Assembly (NCBI GenBank): GCA_008632985.1 | Contig: QPGO01000261.1 | Location: forward strand, 1-64,000 | Reading direction: 5' to 3' | Length of the DNA stretch: 64,000 nucleotides | Source of the DNA: Psammoneis japonica | Lineage: Eukaryota | Part shown: positions 39,133 to 63,063 of the stretch, piece by piece | Layout: each line of letters begins with the position of its first letter | How positions within the stretch are numbered: the first letter of the stretch is position 1 | Translations under genes and position numbers: made by a program | The notes under the pieces: model-generated | Told to the model about the DNA's origin: nothing | The model's input: the letters and a program-made list of their open reading frames with translations, nothing else | Database searches by the model: none

Positions 39133-39480
39133 CAACATGCCGAGTGTCACGGTCATCTGTGTTCATTCGTGGGTGTCAGCCCGGTGTCAAAAGGATGTCA
39201 ACGATGACACTTTCTAGAAACCTCTTCTCTTTTCTCGACACATCTCGATGCCTCTCGAAAGATTGTTTCTTTGTGTTTCTGCGCAGTTTCTTGGTGTTAA
39301 TTCTGTGAGATTTCGGAGCAGCCGAATCTCTTTCATTTCTTCTCACAACATTGGCAACAGTCAACTTTACAACGCCATTTTACACTGCCACTTGGCACCA
39401 CTTGGCACAGCAAATTTGCTCCCAAATGCTTGTTCATCTCTCTTGAGACATGTCCACCGACCACATTGTCCTGACCAGAC

Positions 39481-42400: not shown

Positions 42401-43702
42401 GTCAGAGCGCGTCAAACGTTGGCGCTTGCTTCTCAAAGAGTGCGGTTGCTCTTTGAATGCTCGCCAGGCCACAAGAATGTCGTGGCTGATTTTTTGAGTC
42501 GCCACCCTGTCGTCCAAGTCGACCAAAGCGACCACAAGGAAATGACTTCATTGGAAATCGATCCTCAGACATTCCCCATTACTTTCGACATTGTCGCCGA
42601 CCATCAGAAAAAAGATTCTGCTCTCCAGCAGTGGCTCGACAAGTCTGAATCCTGCTCAGCCAAACCACTCAACAGAGAACAGATCATCCTTTGCAAAGAC
42701 AAGATTGTCCTCCCTCCAATGCTTTTTCCTGCAGTTCTGCATTGGCATCATGAAACTCTCTGCCATCCTGGTGCCAATCGCACCTGTCAAACCTTGGCTT
42801 CACATTTTTACATCCGCGACATGCAGACGAAAGTCCGTGCTTTTGTCCACAAATGCCACATGTGTTCCAAATCCAAGCGCACCACAGCAAACTGTGGTGA
42901 ACTGCCTCTTCCAGATGCTGTTTACAAGCCTTGGCAAGCAACTCAAGTCAATCTTTTTGGTCCCTGGACGCATGCTGACAAGAATGGTGCCGATCGCAAA
43001 ATCAGAGCCGTTTCGATTGTTGACATCGCAACCCGTTGGATCAAACTCGTGAACCACAAGTCCAAAACGTCTGAAGACATTTCACTTGTCGTTGATTGCG
43101 AGTGGTTTTGTCACCATCCGCGACCAGAAATTGTTGTTTGTGACAACGGCTCTGAATTCACTTCCGAGCCCACAGATCTCCTCTGCAGTTGTGGTGTTAA
43201 ACTGAAACCCACAACAATCAAGAATCCTCAAGCCAATGCGTTCATTGAACACATTCATCAAGCAACAGCCGATTCTCTCCATGCGATGGATCTCCCTTCT
43301 TGCAATTGTGATGAAGACACAATTCATGGAATTTTGCAATCCGTTGCATGGGCCTTGCGCAGCACCTGCCACACTGCCCTCATGTCATCTCCCGGACAAA
43401 TTGTCTTCGGTCGAGACATGGTCATTTCCGCTGCTTGTCTTGCAAACTGGAAAATGATTGATGCCCGTCACAAGCGCGATGTCCTGCGCAACAATCTCCA
43501 TGAAAACGCAAAACGTCTTGCTTGCGACTGCAACATCGGTGATCAAGTCTTCGTCATGACCAAAGACATCCAACGCAAACTCAACACCAAAGATGGTCCC
43601 TTCCGCATTGCACGTGTCCATGCCAATGGAACCGTTGCCATCCAGTGCTCGCCTCACGTCACCGAACACATCAACATCTGCCGTCTTCACCCTGTCTTCT
43701 AA
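39481..43702 (+). pseudogene. gypsy gag-pol (Gag, protease, RT, RNase H, integrase)
   Basis: Protease LDAGA..HDIVIGR; RT DLRKLN, RLPQG, YINN (from YIDD); RNase H DASD..EKELL..DHKNL; integrase HPG..CHMC, CDNGSEF, ANAFIE. In-frame TGA stops at 40036, 40981 and 41551; frameshifts near 42110 and 42455. Confidence 0.93.
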
Positions 43703-44996
43703 CGCCTCAATTGGGGAAGCGAGCGCCGAGTGTCACGGTCATCTGTGTTCATTCGTGGATGTCAGCCCGGTGTCAAAAGGATGTCAACGATGACACTTTC
43801 TAGAAACCTCTTCTCTTTTCTCAATGCATCTTGATGCCTCTCGAAAGATTGTTTCTTAGCATTGATTCTACAAGATTTCGGAGCAGCCGAATCTCTTTCA
43901 TTTCTTCTCACAACATTGGCAACAGTCAACTTTACAACGCCATTGGTTCCTCCTCTTTTAGGTGGAACTCTCTAGATCGAAGTCTGAAACCGAAAGATTT
44001 TGGATTGCTGCCCTCGCCACTGTCAGAAAATAGAGCCATGACGATTGCCTGCACCAATCATTTTGCTGCATTTTGCGCCGGGCGTTTGAATTAATTGCAA
44101 CACATGACGGTTGTTTCGGTGCACACTTTTGCGCAACCAACGCGACATGACCAATGTGCGTCAGTGTGTGGTGCTGGTTGTTTTGCTTCTGACCGTTCTG
44201 TCTTCTGTGAGGTTTCATGAGGCTGTCTCTGCACATTGATGTTGTCCAGTTGTGCATGTTGATGTTGTCTAAGGCAAGCTGCGTTGGATTAAGTGAGTGT
44301 GGAAATGTACGAAATTTACGCGTTGTTGCAGTTTCTTTGCCAAACAGTCAGCCCTTGTTCATGGCCATGCTCAATCCGCGGCGGCTTAAGTGAAAGTCCA
44401 TGTGCATGCATTTTGCTTGTTGATGCGGTTGTCTTTGCCAAACAGTCATTTGCAACTTGCTCAATTCCATTGTTTCTGGCCATGCTTCTTCTGAAGGGAC
44501 TTTGCTTGCTCCTTCTCCTGCTCTGCCATCTCCTCCTCGGTGAAAAATCTCCCCGACCGCTGTGGAATCACCGCTGCATGTGCTGCCTTTAGCTCCTCCA
44601 TGGTTGAGTCATCCTTGGGCGCGACCGTTGTTTCCACATGATGACTGTCCGCTGTCGTGTTGTCTTGCACAAGTGCAGAAGTGACATCAAAATTTCCCGA
44701 GGTGAGGTCAAACGCCACTCTTGCTTCTTCCAAGGTAATCTCCTCTTCGTCTTCCTTGTTCATCAATGACTGAAGAAGTTCCGCACGTGTCTGCACCTTT
44801 TTCTTGTCCTCACCAGTTTTCTTTGGCTCATCTGCCTTCTTTGTTTGTTGTTGCAAATCCATGTTTTCTCTGTTGCTGCATTTTCTGTGACGGTTGCGTT
44901 CGCGTTTCTTGGTTTGTTGGTTAAAATCCATTCGACGTTGTGTGACGCATGTGCAGATTTCCACGCAATGTGCTGATCTAATTGAAACACATCACT

Positions 44997-47900
44997 TTAC
45001 GAAATTTCCACATTTTTGCGGTTGGGGTCGCCAAACAGTTGCACAGTGGTTGAGCATCCTAATCCAATGTTTGCGCACTGCATCAACATTTCTGCGTGCT
45101 GTTGCTGAGAAAAACATGTGGCGCTTCTCTCCTTCATGAGTCTTGTCAAGGCTTCGCAGCCTTCTGGGACCTTGCATTTTTGCAGGTCCTTGCTTGGTGG
45201 CTTTCGCATGAACAGCCCTTCTCTGGTCTTTGCTCTGGAGAGCACAACATGCACCCAATTCTGAGTGTAGCTCCAAGAGTGTGCAAACAACTGCGGGACT
45301 CCACTCCCTTGCAGTTTGTGCCCTGCAGTGGCATTGTTGATGACAAACGGCAGCTGGGTTGCCTTCAGTTGGAAAGTGTGCCTTTGTTTGTCGCCTTCTT
45401 CTAAAATTAGGCTGGGCTTGGCGATGCAAGCCCTGAAAGCATTTGTTTTTGGCTCAACTAAAAACTTCGCGGGGTCGATGCTTTTGTTGCAGTGTTCCAA
45501 TGCATCGTGGTCTACCTGACTGGCAAGCACAGCAGGAATGCTGATGTTGTTGTCTAAAGTCACCAGTCTTGGTTCCTGTCCTGGTTTGAGAACGACCTCG
45601 TCAACAGTGGCTTGCGTTCCATTTGCTTGACCGTTTGCTGCATTTTCATTGAAAGGTGTCATGACTCTGCATCTTCTGTAAATTCGTAAGACTGGGTCCA
45701 TTCTTCCTGATTGCATGATGACGTCTCCTTCACCACAGTTGTTCCAGAAGCTGTTGCAAACCGGAAATGGTTGGCAGAGTCTCGTGCCATTCTGCACCTG
45801 CAAGTCGTCACTGAAAATCAACATTGAGTCAAGGACGTCTCCATCTCTTCTGTGCAGTGTTTCTGCTCTTTTTTCGAATGGGCCAGTGTTGATTGCATCT
45901 CTGTCCTTGTTTGCGTGCGCAGCATGGCGGAGGTCACTGGACAGATCATCTTCATTCTGAACCACTCGTTCGTTGATGTGCTCTACATCGTCAACTGCAA
46001 TCTCACCAGTGCGGAATCTCTCAAGCAGTTTTCCCCATGATGGATCGTCTTTAAACCTGTGCACACCACGAAGTTCTATGCAGCAGCTGATCCACTCGTG
46101 AAACTCGGGACATGCATCTTTGCACAGTGGTTTCACTCCTTTTCCGACTGGCTCTAGTTGCCTGAGGTCACCTGCAAAAACAATGTTGACACCACCGCGC
46201 GGCTTGCTCAATTCGCTCTTCAATGCTGTTAAATTCTCATGGAGTTTTTCTAGTTCTCTCTTGCTTGCAAAAGAAATCTCGTCTGCCACCAAAAGTCTCG
46301 TGTCTGACCATGCTTCAATTTGCTCTTCGGTTGTTTGCTTTCTTCTCATGAGGCATGCAACTCGGTGGATTGTGTCCCCTTTGAGAACAGTCGCAGCCAC
46401 TCCGGTCAGTGCAGTTGCTCTGATTGTGCTTGTTGTGAACGGCTGCTCAACAAGCGAGCAATGCTCTCTTCCGCATTCCACGACGAGGTCCATTGTGGTT
46501 GATTTGCCACTTCCACCTGCACCATGTAAAAAACACACAAGTTGCAACGTTCCACGTCTTTGCACTTCCACGAGTTTCTTCAATCGGCGAAGGTTTGTTG
46601 CGAATTCGTGTCTGCCATTTCTCCTGTTAAGTCCATTGCGTGACGTCTTGTCTTGAAGAGCGTCTTGGCAGCAAGTGAGCACAAAGGTTCCTGCTAGAAT
46701 TTCAAAGGCACGCTGCTGTTGCCCATCCAGTCTTGCTTTCCTGGCCCAGTCTACGATGCTCACTGCAGATCCGTTTGCTTGACGTACATCGACGTGTTCT
46801 TCCAAACCTGTTGTGTCCTCAAACGACCTTCTTGTTCTTTGCGTTCTAGTCAGTGTCACTCAAACAATGTCATCTCTTGACAGAGGTCTGCTGTGGATGT
46901 GTTGTTGCACTCCTTCATTCTGGTCTTCCTCGTCGGTGTCATCGCCGCCCTCTAGATTCTCAAAAAGTTGTCGTTCATCAACCTGGCTTTCCTCGTTTGG
47001 TGGGTCAGTGTGCATGTCTGCCAAGCATTTGCAACCACCCATGTGTGAACCTTTCTGTCTTGCACGTTTGCTGCTCAAATGCGCAGGAATGACTGCTTGG
47101 TTGCTCAACCCAATGTCATCGTCTTCTGGCTGCTCTGCCATTTCTTCCAAAAGTGCATCCAGCAGTTGACCCTGAATGGCGCCTGAAAGACCTTCTTCCT
47201 CGTCACTTTCGCAACAGTCAAACGCAACGTCAGCAGGTCTAAATTGCTCCGTCTTTCTTTGAAGATCGTCAGATGTGCTTTTGAGACGAAGGCAGTTGGA
47301 CTTGGCATCCTGCAGGTTCTGCAAGAAGTTCAAGTTTTCCTCTGCAATGACACCGGCTGCTGCGGAGAGTTGGAATTCACACAGGCATGCATGGGTCATT
47401 GGTTTGAGTTCCGTCATTGTTCTGCAAGGTGCAAACAAGGCCAATGCCAACTTGCAGCACAATTCTTTGTCCAGTGTTGTTGGTTGCTGCGGATCTGTGA
47501 GGCAACTGCCAAACTTGGCTGCATCAGGAAAATCATGCTGAAGTGCTTTTAACAATCGCGGTTGCTGTCGCTGTCTGACACCTTGAAGAAACTTGTTCTT
47601 CGTTGAATCACAAGACAGGTGCCTGTGTGCTCTGTTGTCGAACATCATCATGCCATGTTCGTTTTTCCTTGTGTTGCGAAGAACTTCGCACTCACTAAAA
47701 AATGCAAACGGACTGAGATTCTCCAGTGCTGTTGGACGACATGGGCAGTGCAAGGCCTGGCATTGGAAGAATGGTGCATCGCCAAAATGGGCTACAGTCG
47801 CAGACACTTCGTCTCTTTCTAGTGTGCTGACAATGTCTTTCAAGGGGCACCATGCGGTCAAATGAGATTCGATGAAACGGCTTCCGTTCCTTGTCATGTA

Positions 47901-50727
47901 AGACGCAAGTGGTGGTCCAATGACGTTCGTCTTGTCATGCGAACAAGCACCCCATGTGAGACGTCTGATTGCTTCCGATGCATCAGATGCATGTTTCCGT
48001 AATTCCGTTGCCATCCTGTTTGCAGTTTGAAGCACTTCGTCGTACGATGCAGTGTCATCTTTCTGGGCATCTTTTAGGATGCACTTGGTCGTGCATTGAG
48101 CAGACGGTCCAGGCATCAACAAAGCAATGTTTGTGTTGCATGTCAGTTTTGATCTGCTTGTTGCAGGGCATGACACGTCTTGAAAAGCATTGTGCTTTCT
48201 CCTCTTCGGAACAACTTCCTTCACGTGCCAATGCGCAAAAGTTCCATCCCAGCTGAACCACTTTATCTGAGTGTCATCTGCATTCCTTGCCAAATCATTT
48301 GGACACAAAGCAGCTGGTTGCCTGTGACGGCAGTCACCCAGTTTGAGCTCCTCTCATTTCCTTTTCCTTGACTGCATGTCCAGCTCCTCGTGTGGGGTTT
48401 TTTCACGCATTTTGTGCAACTCTGCGCATTTGGGAAAACACGACTTGTAATGTGCATGTGATGGTTGTAAGCTGCGTCCGGCACACATGCCTCCATTGTC
48501 CCTTGCGGACCACTTCGCTGGTGTTGCACACACATTGTTTTTAGTTGCTTTGCATGGTTGTCTGGACAGCGAGTCAGGCCAGGTGCACGGTGCCGTGACT
48601 GTAAAAAGCTTTCTACAAACTCGACGTTTGTCCAGTGCTTGGTGCAGTGACGACAACAAGCAAACATTCCGTTCTTCGACTGCTGGCCGTCTTTGTGCCT
48701 CAGGTTTCTTAGCTGTTGGTCGTCCACTGCTTTTGGAGAGGTGCGATGCATTTTTGGCACTGTGCAGTCATGATCGAATGCTTCACGCAACGCGTTAGTG
48801 CTGAAGTCCTCGCTGCAGATTAATTCCATGCTGCAGATCTTCTGAACTGTGTTGGCAAGGCACTCAGCACCTTCGCGTCGGATCTGTCTTGTTGGCGAAT
48901 GCAGTTTCTCTCTTGCATTGTGATCGATGCGAGCCAGATCTGCATGTGTCCGTGCACTGTCAGACGTCCCTGCTCCTCAACTGTGGCTAAAAATGTGGCT
49001 GGCCTGCCAATGCAGAAGTTAAAGTTTTCTCTTGGTTGGTCAGTGCTCAGATCCCAACCCACTGCCTCTTCTGTTGCAATGTCAAACAAGCACTCAAGTG
49101 CAAAGGCTGTTAGACCGGGAAACTTTAGACGCAGTTCATTACGTTGCTTGGCCCTGCTGGCAAGAATTTCGTCTGTCAGTTGTGTCACGTCTTCGTTTGG
49201 GTCCAGGATGACACCCGAGCACAGTTGCACAAGAAACGAATTTGCATCGTCCGGACTGACGGTTAAGAAAATGCCACCCTGACCAAAATGATGCTGACAA
49301 GTTTCGGCGTTTCTCCTCATTTTCTTTGCTGCTTTGTCACTGTGTGGCAGAGACGCAGATGCAATGTCGAGTGCGCGCAAAAAGTGGTGCCCGAGTCCAT
49401 GGTCTCTTCTCTTGCCCAAGTTGCGATCACAAACAGCTCCATCCACATCGTCCGCTGTCAGTTCGTTTGCAAACTGTGCAGCCTGATTCTTGTCCCTGAC
49501 TTTCCACCCTGTGCTCTGCAGCATCCTTTGCTTCATTGTCAAGTTGTGGCATGTTAACACGAAGAGCTGCTCGTGGAAGTGAGGCTGGGAAATCCGTGCC
49601 AAGTGGTCGGCACAGTGTGCAAGGTTGGTGCCATCTGCAAGACTTCCGTCTTTCTTCATTCTCGTCTCATTGATTCCTCCTCTGCCAAAAGGAAACTGCA
49701 GCAGACACGCGTCAATGAAGTTGTTGCCTTTGAAATCACTCGCAGATTCTTCAGACAACTGTGCTTGCACCTCTAAATCAAATCCGTTGGCAGCAGCTTC
49801 GTGTGCAAGATCTTTGAAGCAGTCCAGGTTGCGCTGACCACCGGTCGCAGGAGACATGGTTCCATCAGGAAAGTGAACATGAAATGACTCTGAGGTCTCA
49901 ATGTTCGTGTTTTCTCCTTCTTCTTTGCTGGTGCTGTCGACAAGCACGGGATTCCGCAGATTACGCCCAACTTCGTCTAGATTCATCTGTTGGCACACCC
50001 ACTCTTGGTTGTGGTGCAACAGCCATTCCATCGCCCTTGGCATGCAGTGCGCCCTAATTCTGTTCTTTGAACGCGCAAGTTGTCTTTGCTCCGGAGTCAT
50101 CTTTCCAGTCATCAGTGCAATCACATTCTGATGTAAATTCAGCACGTCGAAGTGCACAACAGTTCTTACGATGCTTTGCATCTTGACTTTGCAGTGTGTC
50201 AGACTTCCCTGAAGCTTCTTCTGTTTGCCGCCAAGGCAACTGAAGCAGCATCCGCATGTTTTCACTGGTGTGAGCATTGCCAATTCTGCTTCGGTTAGAG
50301 ACAACAGTTTGTGCGGCAGGGTGCCGAAACAGCAGTTGTTCGCTGTCGCGTGCATTGGCACAATGGCTCTTCCCAGGCTTCTTCGGCATTCGCTGCAGCA
50401 AGTGAATCCATCGACGCGTTGTCTGTCTTCCTGTGCTGCGTGTTGGGCACGGGGAGAAAGCAGCAGGTCTTTGATCCAATCAGCATCTTCATGCTCTGCA
50501 GTGCAGCAGGACTTGAGACGATCAGATGTGCTGTTCCAGTCTGAAGGGGTGAGTGAGTTTCTTGCTGATTCCAATGTTTCGAGCGGCAAGTGGCAAACTT
50601 CTCTAGGTTTCAGCAGAATGTCACAGACTGAACATGCGTGTGGTCTAAATTCTCCATCTCTGTGTGGACAAAGCATCTCAAACTTTCCATTGATTGCATT
50701 GCAAACACGGGAGTTGGCCTCGTCCAT
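44997..50727 (-). pseudogene. Helitron Rep-helicase (HUH endonuclease plus PIF1 helicase), fragmented
   Basis: CLLQFPFGRGG, IFLTVSPDD, HUH motif VEEQGRLTVHGHMQIW; PIF1 motifs HGAGGSGKS, ALTGVAA, DEISF, GGVNIVFAGDLRQLEPV, HKLQG, VVLSR. In-frame TGA at 46860 and frameshifts at ~48300-48900. Confidence 0.92.
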
Positions 50728-50819
50728 TTTAATTTAAGCTGACACTTTGGCTCAACAAATTTCAAGAAGTCACTCAGCAAAAACAGTTGTTTTTTCAGTG
50801 CGATCACCGTGAAGCTGCG

Positions 50820-51495
50820 ATCGGTGCCATCCAATCACCACAGCGATGTGTGTTTTCTCACCACCTGCAGCACTGCAACTGGTGTCGTCCAGTCACCACA
50901 GTGGTTCTGTCTGGTTGATCAGCGAACCGCGTCGGTGCCATCCGTTCACCACAGCACTGTGTCGTCTTCTCACAACCTGTGCAATCAGGTTGCTGTGAGC
51001 ACTGCGACTGGTGCTGTCCAGTCACTGCAGCCGAGTTGATTGGTTGCTTGACGAACTGTGTCGGTGCTGCCCGATCACCGCAGCGTTGTGTCGTGTTCTC
51101 ACAACCTGTGCGATCAGGTCTCTGTGAGAGCTGCAACTGGTGTCGTCCAGTCACTGCAGCTGAGCTTGTGCGTCATCTCACAGCCTGCGTTGCGAGGTGC
51201 AGCGCTGTGTTGTTTGCTCACAACCTGTGCAATCAGGTCGCTGTGAGAGCTGCGACTGGTGTCGTCCAGTCACCGCAGCCAAGTGAATCAGTTGCTTGAT
51301 GAACTGCGTCGGTGCCATCTGATCACCGCAGCATTGTGTCGTGTTCTCACAACCTGTGCAATCAGGACTCTGTGAGAGCTGCGACTGGTGTCATCCAGTC
51401 ACCGCAGCTGAGCTTGTGCGTCATCTCACAACCTGCATTGCCAGGTCACTGTGAGAACTGAGAACTGCGATCGGTGTGGCCCAATCACCGCAGTT
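50820..51495. repeat. Degenerate tandem repeat (~110-130-bp units, about 5 copies) upstream of Rep
   Basis: Recurring TCGGTGC..TCACC.CAGC, CTCACAACCTGTGC.ATCAGG and CTGC.ACTGGTG..GTCCAGTCAC.GCAG. Confidence 0.85.
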
Positions 51496-52295
51496 GGATG
51501 CTTTTCGTTTCCCTTTGCGCAAAGGTTCTGTCACAAAAAAGTGAGACGAAAGTGTGCCTCTTTCACCTCGACGGAAGAGTGACGTGCGCGTTCCTCCCAT
51601 GTCCTTCTTCGCACCAGACGTGCGACACCCTGCTCAGTTTCGTCGACATTGAACATCCCATGGGATGAGATTTGGATCTTGTTCAAGTTGTTTCGACCAT
51701 CTGCTCTGAACATTCCATGGGGTGAGATTCAGATCTTGTTCAAGTTGTTTCGGCAATCTTGGTGGTGGGCGCAGCTTTACGTGAATTCCGCAGAATCATG
51801 CTTTAACGAGTGGCGGGGCAGTTGAGTTGGTCGTGTGGCAACAACAATGCGATTGACGTCATTCGTGTTTCCAAAGTGCGCGCGAATCCTCCAAATGGGT
51901 GATGGGCCCACCTTAGCTGGCTGCCGGCACAGCAGTGACAGCGATGGCGTCGACCGTTTGGCGACTGGATTTCGTGTGCGATGGCCACGCGGCAGCAACG
52001 GCTGAAATGCACACGAAGCACGGACGGAATTGCACGTGATTTTATGCATTTTCAGCAAACTCAGCGCGACTTTGCGTGCTCCGATCCTTGCATCTGTTTT
52101 GTTCAAATTGAATCCATGCACCACTTGCAAGTGCTGACACCTGGAAGGTCACCTTGTTGCAGTTCGACGTGTTTGGATCTAGTTGCTGACGTTGCCAGTT
52201 CTCCTTGGTGTGATGTGCGCAGCTCCACTGGGTCTTTCTTGGCACTTCTGAACGATCGCACTTTTTGTTCCCACAATTTCTCTCCGACTGATTCG

Positions 52296-53168
52296 ATGGC
52301 ATGCAAAAGAAACACAACGACCTCCCCGGCTGCGAAAGCCAAAGTCGCCGAAACCAAACAGAAGAAGGCAAAGACGAAGTTTTCTGATGCTCTGTTGAAG
52401 AAACTAAGTCCGCCCCGCAAGACCAACGGCTTGACCGACGACGACCTTAAACCGGAAGACTGCCTTGCCAAGCACGGGTTCAAGCTTTCCAAATCTGCCG
52501 GTTCTGATGATGGCAGCCATTCCGACAAGGACGCCCTCCTGCGCTGCGCCACCATCACTGTCGGCCGCAAGAAAGGCGTCGTTTTTCGTCTCCAAGCCAA
52601 GAATCCCATTTTGGCCAATGTTTGGTCAGAGAAGGTTCTGTTTGACAACCTTCGCAGCAGGACTCCGTGGGCGGTTCAAGTCGGATTCCACCCTTGCACT
52701 GGCAGGTGGGTTCACGAAGGCGAGTTGCAGACGAACGCCAAGAACTGCGCCGTGCGTCTCTTCTTCATCTTCCTCGAAGAAGTCCCAACTGATGCTAAAG
52801 TGCAAGGCCTCGGGAAGTGCATTGCGAAGCAGCTCAACGATGACCCTGAGAACAACACCGAGGTCTTCGTTGAAGACGACTTCTTCTGGATGAAGGATGC
52901 TGTTTGGTCCGAAGTGATCGGCAACGAGGCGGCGCTTGCCAAGCTTCAGAAGGAAGGTGGTCAGTTTCACATCGGTTGGTGCGCCCAAAACAAGAACTCA
53001 CTTCACAGTTGCTTCTACGAGGGGTCATTGCCTGTGGAACTCTGTCGTCTCATTGGAGCTCCTGCAGAAGAAGCTGGAGAAGAGGCCGACGATGATGTCG
53101 AGCTCAACTGTGAAGTTGACCTGAACGTCAATGACGACTTGGTGCTTCAGGACAGCGACGAAGACTGA
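52296..53168 (+). CDS. Helitron cargo protein of unknown function (basic N-terminus, acidic tail), hypermutated
   Basis: 290-codon open frame with clear codon bias and protein-like composition, followed by a T-tract. Confidence 0.6.
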   Translation: MACKRNTTTSPAAKAKVAETKQKKAKTKFSDALLKKLSPPRKTNGLTDDDLKPEDCLAKHGFKLSKSAGSDDGSHSDKDALLRCATITVGRKKGVVFRLQAKNPILANVWSEKVLFDNLRSRTPWAVQVGFHPCTGRWVHEGELQTNAKNCAVRLFFIFLEEVPTDAKVQGLGKCIAKQLNDDPENNTEVFVEDDFFWMKDAVWSEVIGNEAALAKLQKEGGQFHIGWCAQNKNSLHSCFYEGSLPVELCRLIGAPAEEAGEEADDDVELNCEVDLNVNDDLVLQDSDED

Positions 53169-53253
53169 GTTTTTTTTTTTTGCCGGTGCAGTGTAAATTT
53201 GTAAATGTTTGGCAAACTAAGTGTCGATTGCAACTCAGCTTTCCTCTGTCTCT

Positions 53254-54240
53254 TCAAGCACGCACCATCTCCGATGACAACTTGTTGTTGCCGCGAAGCA
53301 ATGGCGAATTGAGCAGAGCAACTAGCGTGTGACGTCTGGTGCAGTGACAGCAAAAAAACAGCTCAGTTGAGTTCTTGAGCAAAATTGGCCATTTTGCGAC
53401 GGGTGAACACTTCCGTTCCAAGTGTGTCGGAGTGGGATGTTGCATGTGCTGGCTGGTTGACTGAGAAGTCTCCTCTTTCTTGGTGCACTTGTGGAAGACG
53501 AGATGTTTCACATCTCCGCTGTGCCACAAAAAGTCGCCATCATGGCAATCCGCCGTGAAGGACTCGCACATCCACTCTCCCGCGTACGACGCGAACAGCG
53601 GATCTAGCGCCACCACCACGGTCCCAGCACGACACAACTTTGAAAGCATTGCCTCTGCCTTCTGCTGTGTGTTCTTGTCGTCGACCATGCGGGAGTTGCA
53701 GTTGTTGAAGAACACCTTGAGTCCTTTCTTTTTCCACAAAGGAGCCAGCCTCTTGTCCAAGAATGACTTGTGGATCAACTCCAACCCGCCGTTCGAGCGA
53801 AGGCCAGCACAATGAGCCCAATGCACAGCCTCTTGGTGACGATCGTGGTCGGCCTCGATGCTCACCATGGTGCAACGGTGACGAAGTGACTTGAGCCCGA
53901 TGCTGGGTCCGGCAACTCCCCCGCCCATGTCGACAGATGCATCGCAGGTGTGATTCACGCCAAGAAGGCATTGGTTCAAAAACACTTCGCTGCTCAAAGC
54001 GAAGCCAACTTCGCCACCGTGCGAAGATCCGCTTCCGTCTCCGGAGACATGCCTGCTCTGGAACGCGGAGTCCGGAGCCGTTTGAAGATGAAACTCCCCA
54101 ACACTTCTGCAACGATGGTTCATCGCACCCAACCTTGTGGCAACATCAACCTTGCTTGCAGCGGGTTCGACCAGACGTCGCATTTCCAAACCAAACTGTG
54201 ACGTGCGCAGAATGCGTAAAATTGCCGTCGTGCCCTCCAT
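53254..54240 (-). CDS. DOT1-like class I SAM-dependent methyltransferase (Helitron cargo, hypermutated)
   Basis: Ordered motifs SSHGGEV (YGE-like), DASVDMGGGVA (motif I), SIEADHDRH, LIHKSFL, VFFNNC (NN motif), GTVVVALDPL. Confidence 0.65.
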   Translation of the reverse strand: MEGTTAILRILRTSQFGLEMRRLVEPAASKVDVATRLGAMNHRCRSVGEFHLQTAPDSAFQSRHVSGDGSGSSHGGEVGFALSSEVFLNQCLLGVNHTCDASVDMGGGVAGPSIGLKSLRHRCTMVSIEADHDRHQEAVHWAHCAGLRSNGGLELIHKSFLDKRLAPLWKKKGLKVFFNNCNSRMVDDKNTQQKAEAMLSKLCRAGTVVVALDPLFASYAGEWMCESFTADCHDGDFLWHSGDVKHLVFHKCTKKEETSQSTSQHMQHPTPTHLERKCSPVAKWPILLKNSTELFFCCHCTRRHTLVALLNSPLLRGNNKLSSEMVRA

Positions 54241-54663
54241 GCGCGCAAAATTTTCAAACGCGGCGTGCTGCCTCTACCTGCGCATGGAGCAACGTACAAA
54301 GTCATTTTAAACAGATGTGCAGACGCGTTGAAATGATGAGACGCCTTCAGGCGATAAAATTTGTTTTGAATCTCGGCCTGCTTCTCATCGTCACCGTACT
54401 TGCACATCCATGTAATTCAAACGCACGAGCTGGCACGGCACGTAACGCATTTCTACGCGAGAACTCGTGCTGAGATTGCCGTGGGATGATCCTCCCTCCG
54501 CGGAGACAAAAACAACGCGACAACACTTCCGTCATTGCATTTTGAAACACATTTCAAATTGAGACACACCATGTCACAACTGCCTCGTGCCTCGCTGCGT
54601 CGTCCTGCCAACGACAAGCACTTGTCGTGATCGAGTTACAGCCGGTCTCGACAGTGTGGGGGT

Positions 54664-56004
54664 TTGGGACGTGCAGCTTGCAGCCCGACAACAAGCAAAT
54701 GCTTCTCGCGATTGGGTTTCGACCCCACTCCCCTGGAGTCCGCCGGTCCCTGTCAACAGAGTTTTGCTTTGGGTGCTCTTGAGGCAACGGAAAGCAGACA
54801 CATCTCTCGATTAGGTTTTGACCCCACTCCCCTAGAGTCTGCCGGTCCCTGTCGACAGAGTTCTGCTTTGGGCACTGTTGAGACAACAGTGACAGTGTCA
54901 AGCAGCGGAACATTTGCCGGCAAGTTTGCACACACGTTCTCTGCAAACACCGCATCGTCAATGCGCACCAGGATGTACGAGAACATGTTGAGGGCTCAAC
55001 CGCCACTTCGTAAGGCCCACCGCAGCTGCAGGCGAATCTGCAGCCACGCCAGCAGGAAAACATCCAAGATCACTCGCCTTGCTCCACTCGCACCGTGCGC
55101 CACTAAGAGTCTCTCCACACACTGCGCAGCCAACCGCACTCCAGTTTACAACGGCAACTGCACTCAGCCTGCACCACCTTGTCTTGCTGACATTGACTTT
55201 GCCGAATTGGCTCCTCTGGTCGTCTGTGACCCTGTGCTTGATCTGAAGCCTTTCTTTGGCTTGGACGGTTGCCGCTGCGACAACACCTGCACCCTGCTGC
55301 TGCGTTCTGCTGTGGTGTTCAGCTCCCCCAACCCAGCAGAGCCAGTTGCTCAGCACCAAGCGCTCGAAGCACTAGAATGCTGCACCGCCCAGTCCACCGT
55401 GCGCGGCAAACAATGCGTCACCTTCATGGAGACGGACAGGAGCAAGCATTCCACGATTGGCCTGGCTGCCACGAGAGATGCTCGAATTTCTTGCAAGCAG
55501 CCTGGCATGGCCGACCAACACACTCACCACCTCACCAGACTTCTTTCACGCATGGAGCACCTTGTCAATGAGCGCGTGGACTGTGCCATCCTCAAGGGTG
55601 TCGCTCGTGTCAAAAAGTTTCACAACTGGAAATCCCTGGTGCGGTCAGATGGCATTTTCTCCTCTCTGGCGGCTGGGTGCAATGTCTTCCTCAACGCCCA
55701 TCGGGACCAGGACTTCTTCCTGTCAGCAGTCACCGTGGTGGGAGTCCCTCCATCCGGCAGCCACACCATGAATGACGGGATTGTGGCGCACTTCTGCTTC
55801 CCTGCCGAAGGCATCTCCGTTGCACTCTGGCTTGGTGATGTCATCATTTTTAACCCCACCAAGTGCCACTGCATCTCCAGCAGGACAAACTCAAACGACG
55901 AGTTCTTCTGCATGTCTCTCTGCCTGAAGAGTGCTGCAGTGGGCAAGAACAACAATTCAATCCCCCTTTCTCTAGAGGAAGAGACCATTCTCAGGCGACT
56001 GTGA
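54664..56004 (+). CDS. TET/JBP-like Fe(II) dioxygenase (Helitron cargo, hypermutated; true start uncertain)
   Basis: NVFLNAHRDQDF (HxD), HFCFPAEGISVAL.LGDVIIFNPTKCHCIS (distal His), CMSLCLK (R-x-S-x-Y position). A ~100-bp tandem duplication lies at 54703-54890. Confidence 0.65.
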   Translation: MGRAACSPTTSKCFSRLGFDPTPLESAGPCQQSFALGALEATESRHISRLGFDPTPLESAGPCRQSSALGTVETTVTVSSSGTFAGKFAHTFSANTASSMRTRMYENMLRAQPPLRKAHRSCRRICSHASRKTSKITRLAPLAPCATKSLSTHCAANRTPVYNGNCTQPAPPCLADIDFAELAPLVVCDPVLDLKPFFGLDGCRCDNTCTLLLRSAVVFSSPNPAEPVAQHQALEALECCTAQSTVRGKQCVTFMETDRSKHSTIGLAATRDARISCKQPGMADQHTHHLTRLLSRMEHLVNERVDCAILKGVARVKKFHNWKSLVRSDGIFSSLAAGCNVFLNAHRDQDFFLSAVTVVGVPPSGSHTMNDGIVAHFCFPAEGISVALWLGDVIIFNPTKCHCISSRTNSNDEFFCMSLCLKSAAVGKNNNSIPLSLEEETILRRL

Positions 56005-56226
56005 CAGTGCAAAATAACTTGCTAAATTTGCGTAAATTTGCTGACTTTCTGCACTCAGGCGACTGTGCAGCTACCCACCAATTTGCTAGATTTGCGCAAA
56101 TTTGCCGACTTTCTGTTCTTCCTCGTTCCCATTTTTCGAACCACAACTGGGGCTGCGCCTTTCCAACTGATGCAACAGTTTCGCTGAAAAACACCAACAC
56201 ACTGTGCTGCTAATTTGCAGAGCACA

Positions 56227-57789
56227 CTACACGGCAGAGCTTCTCCCCCCCGACTTGGGGAGTAGACGCGATTTCTTCTTCCGATTCATGGCACCCGACG
56301 TCGCCTTCCTCTTCTTCTTCTTCTTCTCTGATTCATCCAAGTTGCATCTGGAGAGAAATTCCTCCCCGGGCATGATTCGCTTCGTGACTGCCAAGCACCC
56401 ATCGTTGTAGAACTCGCAGTTGTTGTCCATGTGTTGGCTTGCCTTGATCTTCTTCTTGTCCTTGAACAACTTGGTGGCATCGTTCACGCAGTGCATTCCG
56501 AGGTAGAGTGGATGGGAATTCTTGTTCCCTGGACCGCTAAAATCAAGCGGTTTTGGCTCCACTGTGACGTGGCAGCCCTCGCTGTCACGGATGGTGGAGC
56601 AGCACACGCTGTGGTCTTCTCCAAACTTGCTGTCGTGGTCGCACCACGAGCAGCTCCTTGTTGCACCGGGCACCCTGGGGCCCACGTAGATTCCAACCGT
56701 GCTGCCTTTCTGGAACTGGCGCAAAGCAAAAAAACCAATGCCTGCGCCCCTCCGTTGCGACACGCGCAGCTCGCCCACCTCCACCTCCTTGGGGCCTGCA
56801 GAGCGAACGGACTTTTTGAGGCAAAACAACGCAGGTTGAAGTGACACAGCGCCTCATCCAAATGTGCACACTTCTGCACTGTCTCTCTTCATGAGGCAGA
56901 CCAGTGCGAGCAACCACCCCGCTTCGAAAGCCTCGACGGCGGTCTTGAACACTTTGTTGCTCTTCGGCGTCGAGTCTGGGATGCCCCTCTCGCCGACTTC
57001 CATGCGGCACCTCCACACCCACTTGCAGCGTTCGCCGTGAGCATTCGCAACGGCTTTAGGGTCTCTCCTGATGCACCCCAGTTCTCCCAGCGCGGGGAAC
57101 CAGAGGTCGGGATCATTCGGCGCATCCTTCATCAGGCACATGGACTCCTGGAAATTATCGGATTTTTCATGCCGCAACACCCAGCCCCACAAGTCGAGTG
57201 ACGGCTCGTTGGGGTCCGGAAATTGCTTTCCTTCTTCTTCCTCTTCTGCCGTTGCTTTCGCGACCACTTTGGCCGCGGGCTTGGCTGCCTCCTCACTTTT
57301 GCCGCTGCAAAAAGGTGGGACCTCCGGTTTCACAAAGGTGGCCTGATCACCCACCAACTCGATCTTGCAACCGGCCTTGAGGAGCTGCTCGGTGGTGCAA
57401 CCCAGCTGCTGTGCTTCATTCCAACCACAAATTTGAAAGGTTGGCTCCGGCGGCACGGCTTTCTCCCTCTTTTCAGTTTGGGACTGCGCTGGCTTCTCTG
57501 ACATCCTTGCGCATTCGGACTCAATGGACACACCCTCGGCACTTCCCTCGGCGCCAAGTGCAGTCATGGCAGCTGCCGCCATGTCTTCGGTGCCCGTGAG
57601 TTCTGCCATGACTTCCGGAGCTGCCACATCCTCTGCTTTGCCAGACGCAACGATGTTGTCCTCCACCATTCTAGCGCCGTAATGACAGAGCTGCACTGAC
57701 TGCTGTGTGGTGTGCTGCTTTGTTCCAGCCGTTGGCGATCCACATCCTTCTGCGCACACAAACGTGTGACACTTTGCACCAAATTCCAT
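56227..57789 (-). pseudogene. SET-domain lysine methyltransferase-like protein (Helitron cargo) with one in-frame TGA
   Basis: VSQRRGAGIGFFALRQFQKGSTVGIYVG, MHCVND, NNCEF, TKRIMPGEEFLSRCN. ORFs 57789-56854 and 56847-56227 are in the same frame. Confidence 0.8.
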
Positions 57790-58437
57790 GTGCCTGACGC
57801 ATCAGGATGCAGTGCGTCTGCACCTGTCTACATCCGTCTTCACTGCTGCACGCACTGCGGTGCTGCAGCGCACCCTTTCAAACCTTCATTGATGTTCATT
57901 TTTTCCTTCCTTTTCCTTTTCTCTTCTTCTTCCATCTGGCTGGGAGGAACTGCTGGACAGCCGGTGTCATTTTACACTGCTGCTTGGCGCCACTTGGCAC
58001 AACAAAATGATCAGCCTCCAGCGCGAACCTCGTTTTGCCGAGTGTTTCACGTCCCAAGGCTGAGGGCTTGTGGGAGGAGCAGGTTGGGAGTGTGTCATCT
58101 GTCTCGATGCAGCAAGTTAGGCATGCTGGACATTCAGTTGCGCAAGGACAATGACGTTGGGCATGGCCAGATTACAATAAAGTGACAAGGACCAAACTGG
58201 CAGAGAAGTGTGGAATCGTTCTCTTCTTTTTAATTTGTGGCAAATGCAAACAGTCAGTTGTGTTTGCAAGTTCGTCGAAAGGTTCTTCAAAGCAGGACCC
58301 ACAGCATTTTTTCTCATCTTAGCGACTTTCTTAAAGCTCTGGCGTTGCAAGGAGCTCCTCAAAGGCTAATCCTTCATCATGCCTGAACAACAGTACAAAG
58401 TTCTGTTGGCTCGTATACAAGAGCGATTTAGTGTTAA

Positions 58438-58834
58438 GGGTGGTCGGTTGCTACTTTTTTTAGCTCGAATTCGGCCGAATAGCTCGTGTTTTGCATGATT
58501 TTTCCTGAATTTCACCGTGCTTCACCGTGGTGAAAACAACAAGCCATAAGTCTGTGACGGAGGTGGTCCGTCTACCAACTCTCATTTTTTATTTTATGTT
58601 TGTTATGTATCAAAGATTGTATATACATGAAAAGTTGGTAGACGGCAAACTACGTTTTTGAGAAACATCGATGATTGTCATCATCGTCGTGCTTCGATCG
58701 CGGTGCTGATGGTTCTCGTTTTCGTGCGCGATCGGGTGTGACTATGAACAATTCTTGTATTCAAAAATAAAGACTATAAAAAACCTTATTCAAATGCAAC
58801 GGTAATTTTAGGATAAACGCGGGGATGACCCCCC
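58438..58834. mobile_element. Possible non-autonomous Kolobok-like DNA element (397 bp)
   Basis: TTAA at 58434-58437 and 58835-58838; ends GGGTGGTC / GACCCCCC (7/8 inverted match); internal IR CCGTCTACCAACT / AGTTGGTAGACGG. Confidence 0.45.
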
Positions 58835-59239
58835 TTAATCGGACAACTAGAAAAAAGAAAAAAGAGGAGTCGTATTTACGATGTGTGCATATAGAAAAAA
58901 GATACGTCAGATATTGCCTCTACAAGTTGAAAGTAGGAACGTTGAAAGGTGTCAGATGCTTTCATTAGGGCCTTCTCTCTTCACCGTCTAGTGTTGAGTA
59001 AAGCTCAAAACCTAGCTCTAGAGAGGAACAGGTGTCGATTGGTCGATCCATTATTTCAGAGCCACCCTGCAACGGCGTTGTAACAGGCTAGCCACTTCTT
59101 AGCACTGCCTGCTTTCCACCGTTGTGAACTCGAACAAAGCTTTCCACGCTCGAGTCAATACCTGGAATCTCTTGCTTGCCCCGTTCTCTTCGACGTACTG
59201 TACTGCAGTAGTTTGTCGTGCAGTACAGTGCATCCCAAT

Positions 59240-59520
59240 CTGATAGTTCTGGCCACAGTATCTCCACCAAATAATATGACGGGTCGTCTGAGACTTGCAC
59301 CAATTGATCTCCTTTACAGCTCTGGTGCAAATTTATTATCGACTTGTAGTATTTTCCAAAGATATGGCAGAACAGCAAATTTCCTGGCTCCGACGCATCA
59401 TAAAGGTATTAAGCTCCACAACACCGTAATCACACTCTCGCAAACAAGAGGACAGCAAAACCAAAGCATTCGAAGAGCTTTGTGTAACTTTCATTTTCAC
59501 CAGCTCTGGTGCTATCATTA
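59240..59520 (-). pseudogene. Degenerate second TIR half-domain downstream of ROCO copy 3
   Basis: NALVLLSSCLRECDYGVVELNTFMMRR and DDPSYYLVEILWPEL mirror the C-terminal half of the TIR. Confidence 0.7.
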
Positions 59521-59526
59521 TCACTA

Positions 59527-62500
59527 CTAGATGCCGCTAGACCCAATATTTTGAGCATTAGCATATGCTTCCAAACTTTTGGGAATGGGAGGAGTTGTTT
59601 CGTCCACGCGATGCTCCTCAACGTATCGGACCAGCTCATCTTTCAATGACAATTCATCCCATTCTGGCTTGTCTCGATCACACTTGAGACGTTCAATGAG
59701 GTCTGGCCACAATCTTCCGACTAGATACCTTGCTGGATCATCTATCCGAGCCTCGAGGTAGATCATCCTCTTTAGAGATGTAGCAAACTTGTCGTCTTTG
59801 TCCAGCTTCCAAAGATACGGGAAAACCTTCAAGAAACTCCGCTCCCGTCGCATCATGAAGGTATTGAGCTCCATGACACAGTAGCGACTCTCTCGAAAGT
59901 TGGGTGACAGTATAATCACGGCATGGGTACACGTATGCGCAGCTTCGAGTAGAGAACGCATCTGGTCTTCCCCAGTTTTCAAGCTTCCATCATCCATGAA
60001 GGTCTTGACGCCCAATCTTCTGGCGAGAAACCAATGCGTAGGACGTGCAATAGTCTCTTTGGTATCGATACCTCTATGCGACAAAAACACATACGGATCG
60101 CCACCAAGGTTGACCTGCCAAACACTGCTAGGATCCGGAATACCTGCCATGGACAACTCTCCCACATCTGTCTCGATACCATCCAACCGTGCTTGCGTGT
60201 ACAAGCTGGAAACGTTGCGTCCACCGGCTGTAATCTGGGGGGCAACCGTACGAGCTGTGTAGCCCGTTCCGTCGAGAGGAGATTGTAAACTGGAATTAGA
60301 TTCATGTTTGGCTTCGTTCGGCTTGGCATCCTCAGGTATATCTTTTGCCATATAAAGGTGATTGAGGCGTTCCATCATTTTGTCAAGCATCTCATCCTTC
60401 CGAGCTTTCTTGCTCTCGTGGAAAGTTCCATCTCCAGTATGGAACACCCTTCCGACTTGAACAACTTCTTTGCATATATCACACACGAGAGAATCTGTTG
60501 TCCTCTCCTCAGCTACTTCAGACCAGTCGAACTCGTGGCACTCGTCGACGGCTCTCCCGAGCTTAATGCAGCGTGCACAAGCGAGTACACAGTCGAAATC
60601 CAAACCTGGAAAATGATCGTTTCGTTCCGCGATAACAAATTCGACGGCACCTTGTAACAACCTCCACATGTCCCGGTCAACGCGAGCACCACGAGCTGTG
60701 AATACTAACCATGCCTCTCCTTCCATCTCAACAATCTCCGACCGCAAGCGACGGTTGGTGTTCTCGTCGAGGACAATCGCACCATAAAGCCATGCACAGA
60801 TACATTTCCCATGCGCATGAGTCGCGGCGGCAAAATGTGCAGCGAGACTTGGAGGACAGCCTTCCCACATCTTCAGGCGTAGCTCTTGTTGCTGTTCATC
60901 ATCAGATAATATTGGCCACGCCTTTTGCAACTCTTCGGGTTGTACTTCTTTTCGTTGTCGAAAGAGAACCACGGGCTTGAGGCCACCCAAACTCTCATCA
61001 AGCGAAGATCCAAAAATAACGTCCGCATCCAGAAGCATCTGGAGGATCATTGGGAAATCTTGGTAATCATTTACCAGGTCATGCCACAAGAAGGGAAGAA
61101 TCGCGGGGTCTAACTCTCCCTTCTTTGTCAGCTTTTTGAGTCCGTCAATAATTGGATTCCGCAGTCCAGTAGGCCGAGCCACGATGCCTTTTAGAAACAT
61201 TCCGACAGTCCTTTTGAAAGCCTGCGCATTTATTCTTTCGAGCGTTAACGTGTGGTCTATGAGAGGTTTGATCAAGTCGGTTACAAAAGACGGTTGCAAA
61301 TACGCCAGCCCAGCATCAACAAAAATACTGCCACGGGCTTCAAGAAGTCCTAGTGCATCGCCAAACGTTGTGTCGTCAGCCAAGGGGGCGTGCAAGAAGC
61401 GGAATTTATTCCACAATGACTTGAGCCTCGCAACTGAAGAGTAAGGTCCTTTGGCTGATACATCCGCTTCGCCGCCGTCTGTAGTCGTCTTTATGTTCCC
61501 AATCTCGCCCAATGGAATGGCATCATCCGAACTTGCTACAGAGAAAATCGTTTCTTCATTGGCATCTGTGCCGCATTGAAGAACAGCGCCAAAGAATTTC
61601 CACAGCTCTTGCCATGACTTTGGGATTAGCGTACCGACACTTGACAACCTCGGCTCCGCATGATCCTGCGTGTGCCTAAAGATGGTATTGCTCACCTGTG
61701 CCTGCGAGCGTGCAATGGCGCTGCGGCTCGTTACGGATACTTCCAGGACATTGGGTAGGATCCGGAGCAGCGGCGGCTTCTTTCTTTCCGTCGAGTCCTC
61801 TGGAATGACACGATCATAAAGAGCACTTTCCTCTCCATCTCGACTGGCGGCGGCATCACGCCATTTTTGAAGCTGCCCTTGGACTTTTCTGAGCCATGCA
61901 CTCTTTCCTCGAGCCATTGCTTTTGTTCAGCCTCGTCCAACTCGTCCGGCACAAGATCAACCTTGGATAAGACAAGTTGCACCACGGCACCCGGTGCCCT
62001 TGCCTGTAGTAAAACCAGAAAGCGCTGCACTGACTCTTCATAGAAATCGTCGTGTGCCTTGTCCGCCGCCACGACCAGTAAAAAGAGCGACGACGCGTCA
62101 TGAATGGTGCCTGCCCGACAGCATAGTCTTGCTGACCGCCGCAGTCATAGACCATTAACGTAATTGGATCATCGCTGTATCCTTCGGGTGCATCTATCTG
62201 CACAGGTTCCACATTGAGATAGATGGTCCGTTCCTCCTCACCCTCTGTGCGCGCCGGGAAACGGCCCGCAATGGCATTCCGCAGGCTCGTCTTTCCTGCT
62301 TCCCCGTCCCCCACGAGCACCGTCTTGAGCTGTCTGGATGTGGTTGCCTCCCCTTTGTCCACGGCTTCAAAGTAACGAGCAATCGCCCGAGGCCCGTTGG
62401 CAACCTCGGGCGGGGGTTCCAACAGTGGATTACCATCCACATTAAAATATTTGCACGTTCCCTCAAGTTTCACAAAGGAGCGTGGAAGTCTTGTAATGTC

Positions 62501-63063
62501 ATTGTGCTCAATGTCCAGCTTTGGAGATTGACGCCAATGTTGGTTCTTCTAGGCTTTTCCAATGGCCGGCACCCTTGTCTCCAATGGAATTTGTAGAGAT
62601 AAAGCACGTCAATGTTTATTCGTTCTAGAGCTTTTCCAAAAGCCACGGCACCCTCGTCTCCAATGGAATTGCTGTCGAGATTAAGCTCCGTCAATGTTTT
62701 ATTCGTTTCTAGCGCATTGCCAATGGCCGTGGCACCCTTGTCTCCAATGGAAGTCCAGCCGAGATAAAGCCCCTTCAATGTTTTATTCTTTTCCAATGCT
62801 TTTCCAATGGCCGCGGCACCCTCGTCTCCAATGGAATTGCTGTTGAGATAAAGCCTCGTCAATGTTGCATTTGTTTCTAGTGCTTTTCCAATGGCCGTGC
62901 GCCCCTCGTCTCCAATTGAATTCCAGCCGAGACCAAGCTCCGTCAATGTTGGATCATTCTCTTGGAAGCGACGAATTTTCTCTTGCTCATTTTGTGGCAA
63001 AGCGACGACCCAATCCGCTGTCACGTCAATGCTGCTGCTGGAACTTGCCGAAGACTGTTCCAT
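59527..63063 (-). CDS. LRR-ROC-COR-TIR ROCO-family receptor-like protein, copy 3 (several small indels, possibly consensus errors)
   Basis: About five LRRs, ROC (61856-62473) and COR-TIR (59527-61917). Indels cluster at ~62470-62620, ~62095 and ~61890. Confidence 0.88.

Follow-up and report, generated by a model that had tools for sequence, protein, structure and literature searches.

The window analyzed here, a 64,000-nucleotide stretch of the Psammoneis japonica assembly (contig QPGO01000261.1, positions 1 to 64,000 of the forward strand), contains a 14,023-bp insert at 43945-57967 that is likely to be a dead copy of a multicopy, autonomous Helitron-type element with accessory open reading frames (ORFs), one of which, ORF C, encodes a protein with a predicted TET/JBP fold. 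The insert interrupts the 3' long terminal repeat (LTR) of an LTR retrotransposon, whose intact 5' LTR lies at 39139-39414 (+) and whose integrase ORF occupies 42392-43702 (+; Pfam Integrase_H2C2, E = 1.3e-11; rve, E = 8.2e-7). Compared with the window by blastn, the 5' LTR matched 43725-43944 (+; 87% identity to 39139-39379) and then, after a gap, 57968-58006 (+; 90% identity to 39376-39414), and the insert is therefore 43945-57967. The tetranucleotide CATT ends the left part of the split LTR (43941-43944) and starts the right part (57968-57971); on direct reading it is present once in the intact LTR (39376-39379), which carries the empty target site. In short Logan contigs of a public sequencing run of the same organism (X1; the only DNA run listed, share 0.35; no RNA run was listed), position 43940 is joined directly to 57971 at depths of 227 and 38, so LTR copies without the insert exist. 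Neither the insert nor any of its proteins was found a second time within the window.

On the minus strand, which we take as the strand of the element, the insert encodes a Rep-helicase (RepHel), in which an HUH Rep is followed by a PIF1-family helicase. Pfam places DUF6570 (E = 2e-10) and Helitron_like_N (E = 2.5e-9) in the Rep part (48820-50733) and PIF1 (E = 2e-14) and AAA_30 (E = 3.1e-14) in the helicase part (44997-46859), which is 31% identical to the RepHel of a metagenome contig, L001; the middle part (46860-48353) was located by tblastn with residues 590-875 of the L001 protein. The intact 1629-aa RepHel ORF of L001 is colinear with the gene in the window, which it matches by tblastn in frames -2, -1, -3, and -3. 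The frame changes near 48920 and again near 48446, and X1 contigs have one extra base behind each of these two places. An in-frame TGA lies between the middle and helicase parts, and the Rep part has no tyrosine in 637 residues. A catalytic tyrosine is required by an HUH Rep; with two frameshifts, an in-frame stop codon, and a tyrosine-less Rep, this copy is therefore dead. An earlier note on this DNA had described a Rep-helicase-bearing Helitron that splits an LTR, and both statements are borne out, the first by the Pfam domains and the second by the LTR alignments and the empty-site contigs.

Upstream of RepHel, between 51939 and 57801, lie five long ORFs besides the RepHel parts. They are intronless and alternate in orientation, giving the order RepHel(-), A(+), B(-), C(+), E-D(-). 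ORF C (54631-56004, +; first ATGs at 54961, 54973, and 54985) gave no Pfam match at E ≤ 10 and no meaningful PDB sequence match, and a word-based protein search was blank. A HMMER scan of 1.84 billion representatives returned 657 relatives at E ≤ 1e-3, the best of which (P0001) has an E value of 7.6e-64 and 43% identity. From the 150 listed relatives, we picked 53 by coverage and aligned them with the window ORF. The invariant residues of this 54-sequence alignment are H357, D361, D403, H413, K433, R225, and G277, and at least 90% of the sequences have D359; the family consensus is H-x-D-x-D. The window copy keeps H357, D359, and H413, which on the predicted structure would be the iron ligands. 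The nearly invariant arginine R400 has become tryptophan in the window ORF, and the four conserved tyrosine columns of the family are all histidine or cysteine in this copy.

An AlphaFold2 model of ORF C made with the same alignment (predicted local distance difference test score [pLDDT], 82.3; predicted template modeling score, 0.78) is disordered at residues 1-93, a stretch that includes a 99-bp tandem repeat, and the fold begins at about residue 100. When the model was searched against the PDB with Foldseek, all matches listed down to rank 23 were CcTet, TET2, CMD1, or NgTET1 (E = 1.5e-8 to 1.4e-5); FTO, at rank 24, was the first non-TET protein in the list, and the TET family was also at the top in VIA-align. 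The predicted double-stranded beta-helix of ORF C is thus closest to known TET/JBP structures. Among the 54 family members, the Pfam profile Tet_JBP (PF12851) matched 8 weakly at E ≤ 1 (best, 0.0023), and weak Cupin_2 matches were seen in 9. Based on the model, we accept ORF C as a putative TET/JBP-fold 2-oxoglutarate/Fe(II) dioxygenase from a divergent family that is without Pfam annotation, as the earlier note had guessed when it called this cargo TET/JBP-like; the ranking in Foldseek and VIA-align and the kept His-x-Asp...His triad agree with that call. No relatives of ORF C were found in viral contigs.

The decay of this copy is best explained by transition hypermutation that has removed nearly all TpA dinucleotides, together with CpG decay. 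For TpA, the observed/expected ratio in the insert is 0.15; the other transposon islands of the window have values of 0.03-0.2, and the host-gene segments have values of 0.4-0.5. In the transposon islands, TpG and CpA are in excess (1.5-1.9), and CpG is low (0.27-0.5). The 14-kb insert retains 123 TpA, mostly in YTAR context. Differences among X1 copies are transitions at 637 of 759 places, and pairwise comparison of transposable-element repeats gave 106 transitions versus 19 transversions, with 37 changes of the CpG type and 11 of the TpA type. These data point to a transposon-directed removal of TpA (to TpG or CpA) that acts on both strands and affects the DNA transposon as well as retrotransposons; the direction of the loss is settled neither by the three-copy polarized spectrum of the host-gene repeat nor by the pairwise spectra of the transposable-element repeats. 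We found no published report of such TpA-removing hypermutation (A-to-G, diatom transposons). TpA is also depleted across the window as a whole, most strongly at 12001-16000 and 24001-36000.

This mutational process has two consequences for reading the cargo. Tyrosine makes up 0-1.4% of residues in every ORF of the element versus 3.3% in the 150 relatives of ORF C, and since tyrosine codons have been turned into cysteine and histidine codons, the profile scores of this copy are depressed. Likewise, the + strand of the insert has 264 TGA triplets versus 57 TAA and 36 TAG, and because TAA and TAG are nearly absent, long ORFs arise easily by chance. TpA-eroding hypermutation, which strips out tyrosines together with the stop codons TAA and TAG, thus both hides real domains from profile searches and makes false long ORFs. 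We therefore compared ORF lengths with 200 second-order Markov simulations of the insert, in which the longest ORF had a mean length of 266 aa, stayed at or below 356 aa in 95% of runs, and never exceeded 401 aa, and in which 3.9 ORFs of at least 200 aa were expected by chance. Seven ORFs of at least 300 aa were observed versus 0.175 expected, so most of the long ORFs must be real. Length alone does not make ORF D (208 aa) or ORF E (315 aa) significant.

ORF B (53254-54273, -; probable start at 54123) has one relative, P0151 (244 aa; encoded on a contig of 10,692 bp), at an E value of 7.1e-70 and 52% identity, and is therefore a real gene. No relatives of ORF B were found in viral contigs or in contigs of prokaryote genomes. 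At five of the nine positions where P0151 has tyrosine, ORF B has cysteine. Pfam searches at E ≤ 10 returned nothing, DOT1 (PF08123) included, for either ORF B or its unmutated relative, and DOT1 was not listed at E ≤ 10 in phmmer or profile searches of the PDB. The best PDB match of the profile built from ORF B and P0151 is an O-methyltransferase (E = 0.071), over the glycine-rich S-adenosylmethionine (SAM) motif and the acidic residue that follows it. The alignment of the two proteins has D-x-G-G-G, then I-E 25 residues on, and then F-F-N-N-[Y/C], a motif order that, as a lead from sequence, fits a class I amino-methyltransferase and that may resemble DOT1 in order and spacing. A single-sequence AlphaFold model of ORF B was unusable (pLDDT, 32.9). 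ORF B is probably a SAM-dependent methyltransferase, and the DOT1-like identity given to it in the earlier note found no support in the Pfam, PDB sequence, or PDB profile searches.

ORF D (56227-56853, -) has a possible PR/SET-like domain. Its match to Pfam SET (PF00856), the only Pfam match of any cargo ORF at E ≤ 10, covers profile positions 1-100 of 105 at an E value of 0.11 and scores 13.4 bits against a cutoff of 22.4; because the copy is hypermutated, this failure lowers the claim of a SET domain without excluding it. The best PDB matches of ORF D have E values of about 1 and include the PR/SET domain of MECOM. A word-based search found no relatives of ORF D, which is weak evidence, because the same kind of search also missed the 657 relatives of ORF C. 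The SET identity proposed earlier therefore stands as the best Pfam match of ORF D, below the cutoff and on an ORF whose length is within chance, and of the three cargo ORFs in which the earlier note saw enzyme motifs, the TET/JBP assignment is supported by independent tests, the SET assignment is borderline, and the DOT1 assignment is not supported by the profile searches. ORF E (56854-57801, -) is in the same frame as ORF D, with one TGA between the two, and lies about 170 bp from the right end of the element. ORF A (51939-53168, +; ATG at 51981), at 409 aa, exceeds the longest ORF of all simulations. Neither ORF A nor ORF E has a Pfam match at E ≤ 10 or a meaningful PDB match.

Cargo and RepHel sequences occur in the genome at about equal abundance, and a one-off capture is therefore disfavored. 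On 42500-59500, we collected 4567 X1 contigs with at least 80% likeness, whose summed depth is not a copy number and which cannot show the absence of a segment. From the bin at 43634 to that at 57808, the summed depth is 2274-5565 with no drop over the cargo; the remaining bins have 712, 1563, 1294, and 553, and one that falls on an unrelated repeat has 9087. A single contig in Rep (49190-49607) has a depth of 1024, and another, in ORF A (52836-53128), has 1069; a near-identical contig over the right junction of the window copy itself (57938-58277) has a depth of 67. No X1 joints that skip the cargo were listed, in contigs too short to show absence. The earlier note had allowed that other copies of the family might lack the cargo; the equal depths of cargo and RepHel speak against this, within the limit that full copies are not readable from contigs of this length.

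Relatives of ORF C also lie beside transposition genes elsewhere. A 5-sequence alignment used as the query identified 23 metagenome loci encoding such relatives (the single ORF C protein of the window, used in the same way, found none), 7 of which are at least 5 kb long, and 3 of these 7 contain a transposition gene. In L001 (10.7 kb), DUF6570, Helitron_like_N, and PIF1 are followed on the same strand by a 636-aa ORF whose C-terminal half is TET-like. In L004, the start of a DUF6570 Rep lies 3.2 kb downstream of the TET-like ORF, on the same strand and at the contig end. In L010 (9.7 kb; 158-7267), a Plavaka transposase, an ankyrin-repeat ORF, and a TET-like ORF occur together. L001 and the window are about 30% identical in RepHel and 39% identical in the TET-like protein and are therefore distant lineages. 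The ORF C family thus repeatedly travels with DNA transposons of both the Helitron and Plavaka types.

In 7 of the 23 loci (L008, L009, L010, L011, L013, L015, and L016), the TET-like gene is immediately followed by a conserved ORF of ~650-780 aa in convergent orientation (for example, L013:2017-4368, minus). This ORF has no Pfam or PDB match and may be a fixed partner of the dioxygenase family.

Several observations weigh against the interpretation of the insert as a Helitron-type element with a TET/JBP cargo. Helitrons are described as inserting between A and T or between T and T without duplication (PMC10288648), and a 4-bp direct repeat around a Helitron-type insert is unexpected. The 4-bp CATT fixes the ends of the insert but does not establish a Helitron-type insertion. 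Read as a true 4-bp duplication, it would be something that Helitrons do not make. It is possible that the element was inserted between A and T without duplication and that 4 nt are identical by chance, in which case its limits would be 43943-57969; that a target tetranucleotide was reused, as in IS91; or that the insert was captured via end joining. Read on the RepHel strand, the ends are 5'-(TG)ACACC...GGAACC(AA)-3', that is, TGAC or ACAC ... AACCAA-3'. Canonical Helitron termini are 5'-TC ... CTRR-3', and a hairpin lies a few bases upstream of the 3' end. The termini of this element do not fit that consensus and may have been altered by the TpA-directed mutation. A small hairpin does adjoin the 3' end of the RepHel strand (43946-43968, -; one mismatch in its 8-bp stem, loop of 7 nt), with a folding energy of -5.8 to -6 kcal/mol that is unexceptional (z = -0.83; equaled by 37 of 200 shuffles). 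There are no terminal inverted repeats: the two ends are not complementary, no terminal pair is among the 25 longest inverted repeats, and inspection gave only an 8-nt match, located 17 nt in from the right end. That the right end recurs is weakly suggested by an X1 contig that breaks off at 57964 and resumes at 58432.

Other reservations of the same kind concern the cargo. None of 25 relatives of ORF C, nor the window ORF, matched Tet_JBP at E ≤ 0.01, and the family profile found no TET protein among PDB sequences; membership of ORF C in the TET/JBP family therefore rests on the predicted structure. Relative to RepHel, the TET-like gene is upstream and antisense in the window, upstream and sense in L004, and downstream and sense in L001. 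Relatives of ORFs A, B, D, and E were found in 0 of the 23 loci (tblastn, E ≤ 1e-3) and among 0 of their 270 ORFs (phmmer, E ≤ 5), and L001, the only related Helitron seen nearly whole, is without them. Given the varied position of the TET-like gene and the lack of other shared cargo, the cargo is not conserved as a unit from one Helitron lineage to another. Gene order and ends are known from the window copy alone, with short Logan contigs elsewhere.

Three other explanations of the cargo need to be considered. In one, which we regard as rather unlikely, the reading frames A, D, and E and the 176-aa ORF were left open by a mutation process that removed TAA and TAG and are no genes, and the real cargo consists of B and C only. 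The preponderance of TGA over TAA and TAG, the 3.9 chance ORFs of at least 200 aa, and the simulated 95th percentile of 356 aa all speak for this. For A, D, and E, moreover, no Pfam match exceeded the threshold, no PDB match had an E value below 1, and the relatives search, made for D only, was blank. However, ORF A is longer than anything in the 200 simulations, D and E form one frame of 524 codons with a single TGA, the SET match spans nearly the whole profile, and there are 7 ORFs of at least 300 aa versus 0.175 expected. Less probable again, and in our view quite improbable, is that the cargo block is a passenger, either a separate nonautonomous element or captured host DNA nested near the 5' end of the Helitron. 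Helitrons are known for capturing host genes, passive transfer of TET genes between transposon lineages is described as frequent (PMC12730594), and the cargo half has a G+C content of 0.52-0.55 compared with 0.48-0.50; the short distance of about 170 bp between ORF E and the right end and the varying position of the TET-like gene among L001, L004, and the window would also fit. Yet the depth of the cargo matches that of RepHel, so any capture must be old and have been copied with the family, and no inverted, direct, or long terminal repeats that would bound a nested element were found inside or around the block. Moreover, the ORFs are complete, intronless, and arranged in tightly packed pairs, unlike typical Helitron-captured gene fragments, and TET-like genes adjoin RepHel in two further independent contigs.

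The third explanation, which the earlier note favored, is a working three-enzyme chromatin kit in which a DOT1-type B, a TET/JBP-type C, and a SET-type D jointly serve in antisilencing or self-marking. There is something to be said for it: C is TET-like; B is a real gene with a SAM-motif order that may be like that of DOT1; SET is the best Pfam match of D, over nearly the full profile, with the MECOM PR/SET domain among the PDB matches at an E value of about 1; the hypermutation of tyrosine to cysteine or histidine must lower all profile scores; and B and C are divergent genes with a shared intergenic region in a cargo as deep as RepHel. Set against this, no DOT1 match was obtained for B or P0151 in Pfam or the PDB, D falls below the Pfam cutoff, has no relatives in the word-based search, and is of chance length, the combination recurs in 0 of the 23 loci and 0 of the 270 ORFs, and the B model from the single sequence reached a pLDDT of only 33. 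We consider such a kit unlikely, and it is unproven. The observations of the earlier note are thus partly confirmed and its interpretation partly supported, and the Helitron-type element with a TET/JBP-fold oxidase and at least one further gene remains the reading we prefer.

Three tandem repeats lie between the genes of the element: a 129-bp unit in 4.3 copies (50873-51412) between the divergent RepHel and ORF A, a 99-bp unit in 1.9 copies (54704-54887) between the divergent ORFs B and C, and a 64-bp unit in 2 copies (55990-56115) between the 3' ends of ORFs C and D. Possibly, these repeats serve the element as promoter or terminator modules. No tRNA or Rfam match was found in 43000-59000, and by these scans a tRNA origin of the 99-bp repeat was rejected. 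Downstream of the helicase part, a 176-aa, K/E-rich ORF (44461-44991, -) is doubtful as a gene; its match to a TFIIS zinc ribbon is weak (E = 0.0032), and its length is within chance.

Elsewhere in the window, three paralogous TIR-Roc GTPase-leucine-rich-repeat (LRR) genes beside segments of a Brix-domain gene form a segmental triplication (1-1702, 17351-21178, and 59530-62548 on the minus strand and 2170-3225 on the plus strand). The 84-bp tandem repeats in these genes are LRR units, and the transposon islands sit between the triplicated gene copies.

Dioxygenases of the TET/JBP family have been seen as transposon cargo before. Iyer et al. 2014 reportedly associated the KDZ (Kyakuja-Dileera-Zisupton) and Plavaka transposons of basidiomycetes with TET/JBP genes, which had expanded and spread as their cargo. 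The element described here resembles these systems in its type of cargo, and L010 pairs a TET-like gene with a Plavaka transposase; unlike the KDZ and Plavaka elements, which are DDE-type, cut-and-paste transposons that make target-site duplications, it would be mobilized by an HUH Rep-helicase fusion. The closest parallel is a 2025 report that places TET/JBP genes in 11 fungal DNA-transposon lineages, including Helitron1, Helitron2, and Plavaka, with Helitron1 cases in Puccinia graminis and Pezizales and a Helitron2 case in Agaricus bisporus (PMC12730594). Some of these fungal proteins are described as recognizable by structure only, through comparison with CMD1, NgTET, CcTET, and TET2, and their proposed role is escape from methylation silencing. 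Like the fungal TET Helitrons as described there, the window element combines a RepHel with a TET/JBP dioxygenase that evades profile searches and has the same four structural targets, and its dioxygenase gene family, like theirs, is also present on Plavaka-type elements (L010). It differs in three respects. The fungal TET transposons are said in that text to encode no additional modifying protein (PMC12730594), whereas the window element carries at least one additional gene that is real, B, and as many as three other ORFs; its dioxygenase family has an HxD motif, unlike the HxE hallmark of the fungal "PE" type (PMC12730594); and its host has TIR-Roc-LRR genes, where the report covers fungi only (PMC12730594).

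Precedents for the other cargo are more distant. SET genes have been recorded on Phytophthora HarbingerS and MuDR transposons (Repbase Reports cited in PMC12730594), which would be a precedent for ORF D if it has a SET domain; these belong to a different transposon superfamily, and the SET match in the window is below threshold. ORF B and P0151 may share with the histone H3K79 methyltransferases DOT1/DOT1L the class I SAM-methyltransferase order and an N-N-[Y/F]-type motif at the catalytic position, and they differ in having no statistical similarity to them in Pfam or PDB searches; the putative substrate of ORF B could equally be DNA or another protein. In phages, bases are hypermodified by cassettes in which a DNA methyltransferase is paired with a TET-like dioxygenase (PMC8256090; PMC12730594), and the window element is similar in that a methyltransferase-like gene adjoins a TET-like oxidase on a mobile element. 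The phage partners, as given in these sources, are C5-cytosine methyltransferases and glycosyltransferases; ORF B has no C5-methyltransferase match, and no glycosyltransferase was found in the element. We found no literature report of DOT1 or SET genes carried by Helitrons and none of TET/JBP-carrying transposons in diatoms. Within the literature found, TET-carrying Helitrons are described only in fungi. The earlier note, which knew of no Helitron with this combination of enzymes, is thus overtaken for the TET/JBP part by the 2025 report (PMC12730594).

By analogy with the fungal case, the likeliest mode of action of the element can be outlined. The copy in the window landed in the 3' LTR of the retrotransposon and has decayed. 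An active copy would express the dioxygenase, which may oxidize 5-methylcytosine or another methylated base on the DNA of the element; the oxidation would remove or rewrite a silencing mark of the host, RepHel would then be transcribed, and the element would copy itself. ORF B, divergent from C across a shared intergenic region, would contribute a probable methyltransferase, and D/E, which are SET-like, and A could be further accessory genes. The insert, its RepHel gene, the predicted TET fold, the abundance of copies, and the decay are shown by the data; the activity and substrate of the enzyme, its antisilencing role, and any cooperation among the cargo proteins are what we infer from such comparisons. 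In a more far-reaching version, which is speculative and which we judge to be improbable, a high-copy Helitron family in a possibly nonfungal host would carry, as two gene pairs that each share an intergenic region, a TET oxidase with a DOT1-like amino-methyltransferase and a PR/SET-like lysine methyltransferase. This kit would rewrite DNA and histone marks so that the element stays transcribed, and the extreme TpA/CpG hypermutation that killed this copy would be the answer of the host.

Transposons with enzymes that reverse silencing show directly how genomes and their parasites compete in an arms race. The window element, together with L001, L004, and L010, places a large TET-like family (657 representatives, without Pfam annotation) on Helitron and Plavaka transposons in environmental eukaryotes. 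What appears to be new here is a TET-carrying Helitron with extra cargo, including at least one more real gene, for a probable methyltransferase, and possibly in a host outside the fungi. If the identities of the partner genes should prove true, this would be the first transposon known to us to have enzymes for both DNA marks and histone marks, and the idea that a transposon sets its own chromatin state would become testable with consensus proteins.

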